27,837 nucleotides of DNA from a virus (taxonomy: Duplodnaviria; Heunggongvirae; Uroviricota; Caudoviricetes): IMG/VR virus record IMGVR_UViG_2537561944_000027; one strand, written 5' to 3'. Shown here piece by piece: positions 6,001 to 9,000 of the stretch (the stretch's first letter is position 1; the number at the start of each line of letters is the position of its first letter). Made by a program: the position numbers.

Positions 6001-9000
6001 ATTCATCACGTAAGGCTCTGGCTCTGGCTCTTGCAAGGGTAAGGTGAGGATATGTCCCAAGGCTCATTTTGGTTCTTTTCTTGCTCACGGGTACTGCATA
6101 CCTGAAATACCAATTTTTCTTGCCTCCTTTCGCCAAAGGAGCGATTCGTAGAATCAGACCATCACCGTCAAACAAGTTGATTTCTTTATCGGCTGGCTTG
6201 GTGCTTTTGATTTCAGTGTCAGTGAGCTTCTTAGCGATTTTTGCCATTTTGGGACCCTCGGTTTTTGGACCCTTCTTAGTGGGTCCCATTCAGGGTGCCA
6301 TAACTCGTAGTTCTCAGCAATTCTCACTGGACGACAATAGACGTAAAAAAGCCCGCAGAGCTTGTGCTGTGTGGGCTTAGTAGACTTCATTGAACTTCAA
6401 ACAACTAAAAAGTGGAGCTGGCGGGAGTTGAACCCGTGCCCGAGCAATGCTTAACCCATTGAATAACAATGCATTCTCTGTTTAAAAATGCCTCAAGTGC
6501 ATTTTGAGTGCATTTTCTGGTCCTCTCTTGGTCCATACAACGAGATTAAGTGGCCACTTGAAGTTCCGGCCCTGCGTCGCTATCTATTAACGGCTGACCT
6601 TGAACCATTTTTTCAACCATATCGTTTGAAGGATATGGAACCCCGAGCTCAACCGTATTAGGGTTGGAACGGTGGGTTTCAACAAACGATGTTCCGTTCC
6701 ATTTTTTTGAAAGGTAGATTATTCCTTCAAAGGCTGCAGGGTCCTGTTTCTGAGACTCTAAGATCATGTGGAAGCCACGACGTTCTATCCCGCGTAAGAA
6801 GCTGGAGAAGCACTCCCTCAGTAATTCGTCATCCAAATCCTTGAACTTGATACCCTGCGCAAGAAACTCGAAATAATTAAGAATATATAAAAGGCCATTG
6901 ATGGCATCCCTGTACTCATCGGGGACCTTCATATTCTTGTATTCTTCTTTGTCTGGGTTGCAGCGCCACTCTGATAGTTCTTGTGGTACATAACGCATGC
7001 CCCGATAGAATTTGGTGCTGTTCCGAAGCTGTTTTTGGTACTCCGGGCTTGTTCGGGTGTTAATGATCATGTTCAGCGTGTGGGACCTGCGCGTGTTAGC
7101 AGCGGACGTTATGCATTGTATCCACCATCCCATTCCAACGAGCATTCCTGTAACCATGATCGAAAGCGATGTTTGATAGGCCGGTGTGTACCTTAAAATT
7201 GCATATCCAATAAGGATAATCACATAACAAACAGTGCTGAACATAGGAAGAAATTCTGCAGTGTCTGGATAGCGTTTTTTGATGAAGCAGAAGATAGAAG
7301 ATATTGCTGCACCAGAACCAGCAATGACGATCAGCCAATCAATGATGGCGATGCTAAATGGTAGTTTTCCAGGGTAGATATAAGTAAAAAGTGCTCTGAC
7401 AATCATCATTAGAGCAAAAATTGTAGCGCTGACGTTGACTAATGTTCTCGCCATCTTATTGATTCCTATAACAAAAGACCTCCGCATGGGAGGCCTTATT
7501 GTGCTAATGGAGGTTTGTTTTAAAATTTTAGGTTGTAGTTAACCTTCACCGAAACCTACGGTCAGTGTCTTTTTCATAGTGTTCACTCCAGTTGTGGTGC
7601 TTCGCCGATACCTACGTTAAGCTCTTGAAAAGTAAAAAAACATAAAAGTTTTAGAATTTGTGGAGCACAGGATAACAGTTTGTACTGGGACTCATCAAGT
7701 ACTATCAGTGTCCTTGCACTGTCCTAGTGAAAATTTATTGCAATAAAGTAACTTACGTGAAGTCAAGAAATATATTTGCACTCCATTTCTTGCTATGATG
7801 TAAGTTATTGATTTTAATTAAATTTACAATTACCTAAATGAACTATGGAAACTATCAATAACATAGATGATAGCTCATTTCACAAAAAGCAATGGTAGAC
7901 TCATTCTTAATTTTCATCAGCCTTAAGCCTATGTACTCAGCTTGACACAACATTTATAGACGTTTTACCATCGTATTCAGCCAGGTATTTACCGTAATTG
8001 CGGAACAGCATTTCCGGCCCCTTATGCCCCATCTGCCCGGCAAGCCAGAAAAGGTTTACACCCTGGCTAATGTGTCTGGTGGCGAATGTGTGGCGCGTCT
8101 GGTACGGGTTACGGTAGCGCACACCAGCTTTTTTCAGGGTCGGCACCCATGCTTTTTTACGGATAGCGTCGGCGTTCGTCCAGGGTTCTCCCGTTTTCGG
8201 ATCGCTGAATATGAACTCACTTTTCATAAAGGTGTATTGCTTCTGCGCCTGCAGGGCTGCCAGCGCCTCACTGTTCAGCTCCACCTTACGGGTACCGGCT
8301 TTTGTCTTGGTGCCTTTAAGTACCCCTACGACACTGGCCGCCTGAACGTGGGCTGTGTTCGCGATGGTGTCGAGATCAGCCCAGCGCAGCGCGCACAGTT
8401 CTGAGCTCCGCAGACCTGTATTGAAAGCAAAGCGGAACAGGTTTTCCCATTCCCTGTACCTGCAGCTCTGGTAAATGGCAAGGGTCTCCGCTGGCGTGAA
8501 CGGGTCAACCTCGTAATCGTCGGCGCTCGGGCTACTGTCGATCACGTGGTACCGGCTGGCGCTGACGAGGGTTACCGGGTTAATGGTCAGCAGGCCATCC
8601 GTAACAGCTTCATCAATGGCGCTGCGCAGAAATGACAGGTTATTCCTGATTGTTTTCAGCTTAGTTTTTCGGCTGGCTATCCAATTTTTTAGTATCGCAG
8701 GCGTCAATTCTGTTACATGTAGTTTATGTAGTTCTGATAGTGCTGATAGACATTTTTCGTAACCGCCAATGGTTGACGGCGACAGATTACGGTTTATGCA
8801 AATTTTCAGGTATTCATCAAGATAGGACTTAATATTTTTGGTTTTCTTTACTACACCGAATAACTCCAGTTTTTTGGAATTGGGGAAATATTTCGCATAT
8901 TCAAACGTTCCGCTGGCGATCTGATTTTGTATCTCCCCTAGCAGGCGCTCAGCATATTTTATACCACGTGTATTTGCCTCAAGCCGAGATAGGGGCTCCC

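Follow-up and report, generated by a model that had tools for sequence, protein, structure and literature searches.

A displaced 3′ end of ssrA at the junction of a lambdoid prophage and an island with a P4-type integrase: very probably a two-member tandem array

Why should a single short copy of the 3′ end of ssrA, the gene for transfer-messenger RNA (tmRNA), lie between two integrase genes? The question is raised by IMG/VR virus record IMGVR_UViG_2537561944_000027 (Caudoviricetes), a stretch of 27,837 nucleotides (nt) that was analyzed as a whole and is called the window here, in which a short ssrA sequence stands between the gene for a P4-type integrase and the gene for a lambdoid integrase. 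An earlier note, made from the sequence alone, had proposed that two elements are integrated in tandem at the ssrA attachment (att) site with this core as their shared junction. Comparison with near-identical Escherichia coli genomes indicates that the locus is very probably a two-member tandem array at ssrA, in which the 25-nt sequence is the native ssrA 3′ end displaced to the junction. What the comparison shows is sequence identity, gene order, the separate occurrence of each element and the att specificity of the integrase family. One core is flanked by two integrase genes because the P4-type integrase gene lies at the ssrA-proximal end of its element, whereas the lambdoid integrase gene lies at the ssrA-distal end of its own.

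The 25-mer GTGGAGCTGGCGGGAGTTGAACCCG has a single exact match in the window, at 6412-6436, which is a minus-strand copy of ssrA, and no second copy was found within the window with up to three mismatches allowed. Its reverse complement CGGGTTCAACTCCCGCCAGCTCCAC equals L001 581-605, which are nt 337-361 of ssrA as annotated in E. coli O26 RM10386 (363 nt). It comprises 3 base pairs (bp) of T-stem, the T-loop, the T-stem, the 3′ strand of the acceptor, the discriminator A and the first C of CCA. No tmRNA gene was called in the window by ARAGORN or by Rfam at gathering thresholds, and a permissive Rfam scan aligned 6410-6457(-) to no more of the tmRNA model than its T-arm and acceptor 3′ end (13.9 bits, far under the gathering score); 6412-6436 is therefore a fragment and not a gene. 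Its shortness is the only property that speaks for a chance similarity, or for a generic tRNA-like T-arm motif unrelated to ssrA; against this stand the identity at 25 of 25 positions, the 0 matches expected by chance (100 shuffles) and the agreement of both flanks with known ssrA junctions in hundreds of genomes, which leave a fortuitous match with a vanishingly small probability. The ssrA 3′-end core that the earlier note had placed here thus stands as an exact and non-chance match, and so do the distances it gave to the two integrases (165 nt and about 1.5 kilobases, kb), which came out as 165 nt for the start of the P4-type integrase gene (6247) and 1501 nt for the end of the lambdoid integrase open reading frame (ORF; 7937). 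Its statement that the lambdoid side does not continue as tmRNA can be refined: five of the next seven bases (6437-6443) still match ssrA, and these seven bases form the left limit of the identity block, hence of possible crossover.

The surroundings of the fragment were read from near-identical genomes. The window is E. coli DNA of the O26 lineage. Its positions 5000-9500 are 100% identical to many complete genomes of the O26 lineage, and BLAST of the window against RM10386 gave 99.98% identity over 1-13014 and 99.97% over 13015-16333. NIID080884 is the best match, though an inexact one, for the right half of the window. In the direction of ssrA, both RM10386 and NIID080884 present smpB, intact ssrA, a dinI-like pseudogene, espK, espN and nleL, followed by tail, head (with a frameshifted portal), lysis, Q, replication and immunity genes, then xis and int, the DUF4760 gene and the fragment, and lastly the P4-type int, a gene for a hypothetical protein of 138 amino acids (aa), the Response_reg_2 and HEF_HK/HATPase genes, IS3, a 5′-truncated ygaQ and glaH. 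The intact ssrA (L001 245-607; L014 7589-7951) is outside the window, past its right-hand end and about 56 kb away from the fragment, on the same replicon and in the same orientation. Both array members carry an integrase of their own, and the two are full-length tyrosine integrases of different subfamilies. The only copies of the core are the intact gene and the fragment.

The layout in these two genomes, together with the separate occurrence of each element, bears out the tandem insertion proposed in the earlier note with the core as its junction; what has to be given up is a second excisable element, since there are only two core copies and the island is a fixed remnant. The same note had suggested a search for an intact ssrA and for more copies of the core, and the former was located at the far end of the prophage in the near-identical genomes whereas no copy was found in 50 kb beyond the island. 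An intact ssrA immediately adjacent to the fragment with no further core copy, the arrangement it had named as contrary to its proposal, is not what these genomes contain, the gene being about 56 kb away.

Several observations weigh against a two-member array. The intact ssrA is outside the window, and the array is read from near-identical genomes, of which RM10386 matches the window only over 1-16333 and 17593-23510, the right half differing elsewhere by IS600 and by a divergent late region (after 23510). A distal 3′ fragment, as used by Islander, is present for the lambdoid prophage (6412-6436) and absent for the island, which has no second fragment; by strict Islander criteria only one array member is fully delimited. 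Additionally, the portal and capsid genes of the prophage are frameshifted, so that it may not be mobile, and no free-phage attP was found for this exact phage. The record phi467 (LN997803.1, L004) was considered as a source of a free attP and rejected, as it was cut too widely from a prophage and takes in the ssrA fragment along with the whole island (intA, receiver, kinase); its end is not that of a phage genome.

Could both parts belong to a single composite element with two integrases and an internal ssrA-like sequence, which moved into ssrA as a unit? Such an element is exceedingly improbable. It is favored by phi467 (LN997803), in which a single 'phage' comprises both the lambdoid part and the island, but that record was extracted from a prophage and continues across the core into the island. 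In other genomes each of the two parts is found at ssrA without the other, and the PhiR12 series and phiES15 records show no such island in the integrase-proximal regions examined.

Evidence for the tandem array comes from the genomes in which the island is seen without this prophage. The island/ssrA junction is present in 498 genomes (49-nt probe), and 400 carry the undeleted 52-nt junction …CAGCTCCACCAC-TTTTTAGTTG; in most of this set, among the matches listed, ssrA is annotated under the match. The P4-type integrase gene accordingly stands beside a regenerated target gene, directly 3′ of intact ssrA in most of about 400 genomes. CFSAN029787, for instance, has smpB and ssrA, then directly the same int, hypothetical, receiver and kinase-like genes, IS3 and truncated ygaQ, and in every island copy examined the kinase-like and receiver genes come after the integrase. 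No P4 regulatory or replication genes (AlpA/Vis-like excisionase, primase-helicase) were found in the island, whose content is int, the 138-aa hypothetical, the receiver, the kinase-like gene and IS3, so it is named here an island with a P4-type integrase and not a P4-like prophage. The "P4-like island" carrying a kinase/receiver module of the earlier note therefore keeps its P4-type integrase and its kinase-like/receiver pair but has no other P4 genes.

The lambdoid prophage, for its part, belongs to a family of integrases that is specific for ssrA. Its integrase (Int) shares 91% aa identity with Int of Cronobacter phage phiES15 and 95% with Int of PhiR12_1, over the full length. The attP of phiES15 is annotated as the 26-nt ssrA 3′ end GGGTTCAACTCCCGCCAGCTCCACCA, and the PhiR12_1 record (for which K-12 MG1655 is the stated host) has both of its ends in the same ssrA core, with a dinI-side flank that resembles, by eye, the flank of attL in O26. 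Both integrase orthology and an attP with the ssrA 3′ end are thus found, so that integration regenerates the gene. Some genomes with the 3-nt-deleted junction described below carry the prophage, and others have the exact empty site. In HCP5S3_I4, with identical DUF4760 and integrase proteins, the phage end is joined via …CAGCTCCACCA to ATCATGATTGGACGG… and ypjA; as this is the native flank that follows psaA in K-12, the phage occupies an otherwise empty ssrA site there.

How was the fragment separated from its gene? The attL junction reads ggacg-CGGGTTCAACTCCCGCCAGCTCCACCACTTTT-gatagg and the attR junction in the window gggca-CGGGTTCAACTCCCGCCAGCTCCAC---TTTT-tagttg, while the empty-site junctions read ggacg-core-tagttg, with the 3 nt in CFSAN029787 and without them in 94_0962. 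An attP rebuilt from attR (left side) and attL (right side) contains CGGGTTCAACTCCCGCCAGCTCCACCA. Towards the island, the repeat in common with the intact-ssrA junction measures 32 nt (…CTCCACCACTTTT), of which the window copy lacks 3 (CCA/CAC), and it is because of this deletion that the exact match ends at 25 nt. Taken together, the junctions fit reciprocal site-specific recombination within the identity block. UTAK-6 has the same phage end joined to the undeleted core and the island. A phage origin of the 3-nt deletion was considered and rejected, since the same phage end meets undeleted cores in UTAK-6 and HCP5S3_I4; these cores, and the fact that the deletion travels with the island side, place the crossover 5′ of CCA. 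The identity block starts 4 nt 5′ of the T-loop, and we infer that the exact crossover site is most likely the T-loop TTCAACT flanked by the inverted halves of the T-stem. Crossover in the T-loop with the T-stem halves as inverted core sites is the classic pattern of tyrosine integrases specific for tRNA and tmRNA genes (tDNA). Such tDNA crossover sites are classified in Islander (PMC4383910). The sequence at 6412-6436 is consequently the core of the lambdoid prophage's attR and, formerly, of the island's attL, and its only function is that of attR partner when Int and excisionase (Xis) excise the prophage.

As for the order of events, the island would have come first, inserting at the 3′ end of ssrA and supplying the terminator of the gene, and IS3 would then have truncated it. 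Later, a lambdoid phage whose attP duplicated the ssrA 3′ end over about 32 nt (…CGGGTTCAACTCCCGCCAGCTCCACCACTTTT) would have integrated into the same gene, with phage Int crossing over in the identity block 5′ of CCA. The phage copy would thereby complete a functional ssrA at attL, some 56 kb to the right and outside the window, and the original 3′ end would stay on the island, now preceded by the int-proximal phage end (attR, 6412-6436). Excision of the prophage would leave a scar, ssrA joined to the P4-type int, reading …CTCCACTTTTTAG.

The greater age proposed for the island rests on its truncation. In the parent genomes IS3 adjoins the 5′-truncated ygaQ, and no distal ssrA-like sequence was found past the island up to ygaQ/glaH in 50 kb of parent genome, where the sole hit (15 nt with 2 mismatches) is on the opposite strand inside gabD and is attributed to chance. 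K-12 keeps psaA and the ypjA-ileY-ygaQ region at this locus. With its distal fragment lost in an IS3-associated truncation, the island is an immobile, fixed remnant, and since genomes that have the prophage and genomes that lack it share one IS3/ygaQ truncation and the distal ssrA fragment is gone, we infer that the island is older and the phage later. The reverse order, in which the lambdoid phage came first and the island entered the displaced fragment (the prophage attR), would give the same gene order, as a displaced fragment reaching from the T-loop to the 3′ end could act as a secondary attB. It is nevertheless highly unlikely. The truncated island without a distal fragment sits on intact ssrA in many prophage-free genomes, some of them, such as 94_0962 (99.85% identical over 6.4 kb), with the same deleted junction, and a truncated island without attR cannot have moved as such. 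Different elements, moreover, hold the ssrA-proximal place before the same island: a different lambdoid prophage in O103 WL1467 and in EH031, a P4-like satellite with primase-helicase in F163 and a P2-like prophage in 103605, each separated from the island by an ssrA fragment of its own.

The one point beyond routine concerns the CCA that is missing from the displaced copy. Of the 498 genomes, 88 show the deleted, 3-nt-less junction; the window-type phage end appears to be present in 76 of these, another lambdoid prophage is present in one (EH031), and 11 are free of a prophage. The figure of 76 was derived from the 77 genomes with at least 80% coverage of an 89-nt phage-end probe, less UTAK-6 with its undeleted core, and equals 88 − 11 − 1. 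In the 11 prophage-free complete genomes (H19, 94_0962, War, O111:H11 8D, RM6927, 6883, 12689, B1_2, CAU16175, AUSMDU00014361 and PEC240; locus L013 8665-9027), the sole ssrA ends 3′ in the deleted form, …GCTCCAC|TTTTTAG, and CCA is not encoded, whereas in prophage-bearing strains the ssrA 3′ end is supplied by the phage and CCA is encoded. Two histories are possible: either ssrA lost its CCA and the phage restored it, or the displaced copy lost it and prophage loss put the deletion into the gene. It is tentatively suggested, as a possibility that we hold to be rather doubtful, that in the O26/O111:H11 lineage the presence or absence of the prophage decides between direct maturation of tmRNA and either trimming with repair by the CCA-adding enzyme or an impairment in which ribosome rescue shifts to ArfA. 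If true, this would be a natural, population-level counterpart of the 'rescue switch' of CP4-57. Displaced ssrA fragments with small 3′ deletions, and the inactivation of tmRNA upon CP4-57 excision, have been described (PMC10107115, Table 1 and section 2.1); neither this particular CCA-less allele nor its natural occurrence as the sole ssrA copy is in that Table 1 (PMC10107115). In this way a 3-nt CCA deletion connects a prophage with whether the 3′ end of ssrA is intact in a pathogen lineage.

The features of the window are collected in Table 1.

Table 1. Positions of the ssrA-derived sequences and of the parts of both elements in the window
Feature	Position	Strand	Basis and remarks
Displaced ssrA 3′ fragment	6412-6436	-	tmRNA nt 337-361; exact single match, identity to intact ssrA 3′ end, partial tmRNA covariance-model alignment
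Degenerate ssrA continuation, phage-borne	6437-6443	-	tcgggca versus tcggacg in ssrA; alignments
TTTTT directly 3′ of CTCCAC	6407-6411	-	Intact junctions read CTCCACCAC-TTTTT; window copy without 3 nt (CCA/CAC)
Hairpin and T-run terminator	6345-6378	-	Terminator scan; island-supplied
P4-type tyrosine integrase, 411 aa	5012-6247	-	Pfam Arm-DNA-bind_3, Phage_int_M, Phage_integrase; ssrA-proximal end of island
Island cargo: Response_reg_2 receiver protein, 588 aa	2721-4487	+	Pfam; large uncharacterised C-terminal part
Island cargo: HEF_HK/HATPase_c protein, 572 aa	1019-2737	+	Pfam
Part of IS3 element truncating the island	1-865		Annotation of RM10386, CFSAN029787, 94_0962
DUF4760 protein gene	6546-7454	-	Pfam, PHROGs; variable cargo between att and int
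Lambdoid tyrosine integrase, 391 aa	7937-9112	-	Pfam Arm-DNA-bind_2, Phage_integrase; ssrA-distal end of prophage
Excisionase, 69 aa	9067-9276	-	Overlaps int start; 88% identical to annotated phiES15 excisionase
Rest of prophage in window	9277-27837		Early, immunity and replication genes, IS600, Q, three tRNAs, start of lysis region

Between the fragment and the P4-type integrase, the terminator has conserved counterparts in CP4-57 and in the 3′ end of the model of IsrM, a Salmonella island small RNA (sRNA). The predicted island terminator would end ssrA transcription where the island abuts the intact gene and would be orphaned in the array. Rfam placed IsrM at 6345-6419(-) with its 5′ and 3′ ends only (51.5 bits, the gathering score being 376, and 253 positions of the model absent); the spacer from core to integrase, together with the terminator, appears from this alignment to be homologous to the Salmonella IsrM locus, with no IsrM gene present. 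As for the cargo, PADLOC gave only marginal matches for the island genes and for DUF4760 (E about 0.003-0.007), which were discounted. The kinase-like/receiver pair may form a two-gene module for conflict or defence that is as yet uncharacterised and is conserved beside ssrA in hundreds of E. coli genomes. The gene for the 138-aa hypothetical protein (about 4557-4973, -), 3′ of the P4-type integrase, is disrupted by single-A losses at 4815 and 4928 with respect to all references. A single A is missing at 4815, 4928 and 11001 with respect to RM10386, with zero substitutions across 13 kb, and these losses look like homopolymer assembly errors or recent frameshifts.

The prophage extends about 35 kb past the window to the intact ssrA and measures about 56 kb in all. 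Int, xis and both att sites are kept, but with the head genes frameshifted at most excision, and not phage production, would be expected, and the prophage is probably defective, to judge from its gene sequences. The cargo slot between att and int holds DUF4760 here, three small ORFs in PhiR12_1, ParA and two hypotheticals in O103 WL1467, and nothing in EH031. In the immunity/early region, IS600 occupies 16334-17592 (ORFs 16373-17191 and 17227-17529, -) and is absent from this place in RM10386, and Rfam reported isrK and C4 antisense RNA in the prophage immunity/ant-like region (18020-18208). Three tRNAs (Met, Arg, Arg), STnc100 and AgvB lie 3′ of Q (24783-25412), a typical sRNA/tRNA cargo of lambdoid prophages of enterohaemorrhagic E. 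coli (EHEC).

For annotation, the fragment is of value because it delimits two mobile elements and fixes the right-hand end (attR) of a prophage of EHEC O26 that carries effectors of the type III secretion system (T3SS), and the kinase-like/receiver island is shown as an older, immobilised ssrA island. That elements insert at ssrA repeatedly, displace fragments of it and form tandem arrays is already known, and the locus is a textbook case of the tmRNA gene being used repeatedly as an integration site. In the Islander database 125 tandem arrays are recorded and the tmRNA gene is the most enriched target (PMC4383910). The use of ssrA as a site for lambdoid and Shiga toxin (Stx) phages in EHEC was reported in 2007 (PMC2323221), and a non-Stx prophage at ssrA is known from fully annotated O26/O111 genomes (PMC8112680).

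Among the known systems, the ssrA-integrating siphophages phiES15 and the PhiR12 series are close to the prophage by their Int, their Xis, an attP that consists of the ssrA 3′ end and a similar dinI-side flank beside the regenerated ssrA; unlike these phages, the prophage of the window has DUF4760 between att and int, T3SS effectors (espK, espN, nleL) at the other end, IS600 and frameshifted head genes. Tandem arrays at the tmRNA gene, for example in Salmonella LT2, likewise consist of stacked integrase-bearing elements with displaced 3′ fragments in the orientation of the gene and include an island with a P4-type integrase. In LT2, Fels-2 and Stm27X at ssrA are taken by us to form one array. 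The proximal element of the present locus, in contrast, is a lambdoid effector-carrying prophage and not a P2-like one, and the distal island is truncated. Both Fels-2 and Stm27X are given for ssrA of LT2 in Table 1 of PMC10107115 (citing Williams 2003). The island itself resembles CP4-57 of K-12, where a P4-type integrase (IntA), 48% identical to that of the island, is also encoded immediately 3′ of ssrA, the element supplies the extreme ssrA 3′ end and a conserved hairpin terminator, and psaA, annotated as a short piece of displaced ssrA, lies at its distal end. The psaA fragment of CP4-57 has a small deletion, so excision of the element mutates ssrA (PMC10107115). The two elements differ in their cargo, which is alpA, the abpAB genes, rnlAB and others in CP4-57 and the kinase-like/receiver pair in the island; the island is without P4-like genes for regulation or replication and was deprived of its distal fragment by IS3, and the fragment at 6412-6436, unlike psaA, belongs to the attR of the lambdoid prophage and not to the distal end of the island.

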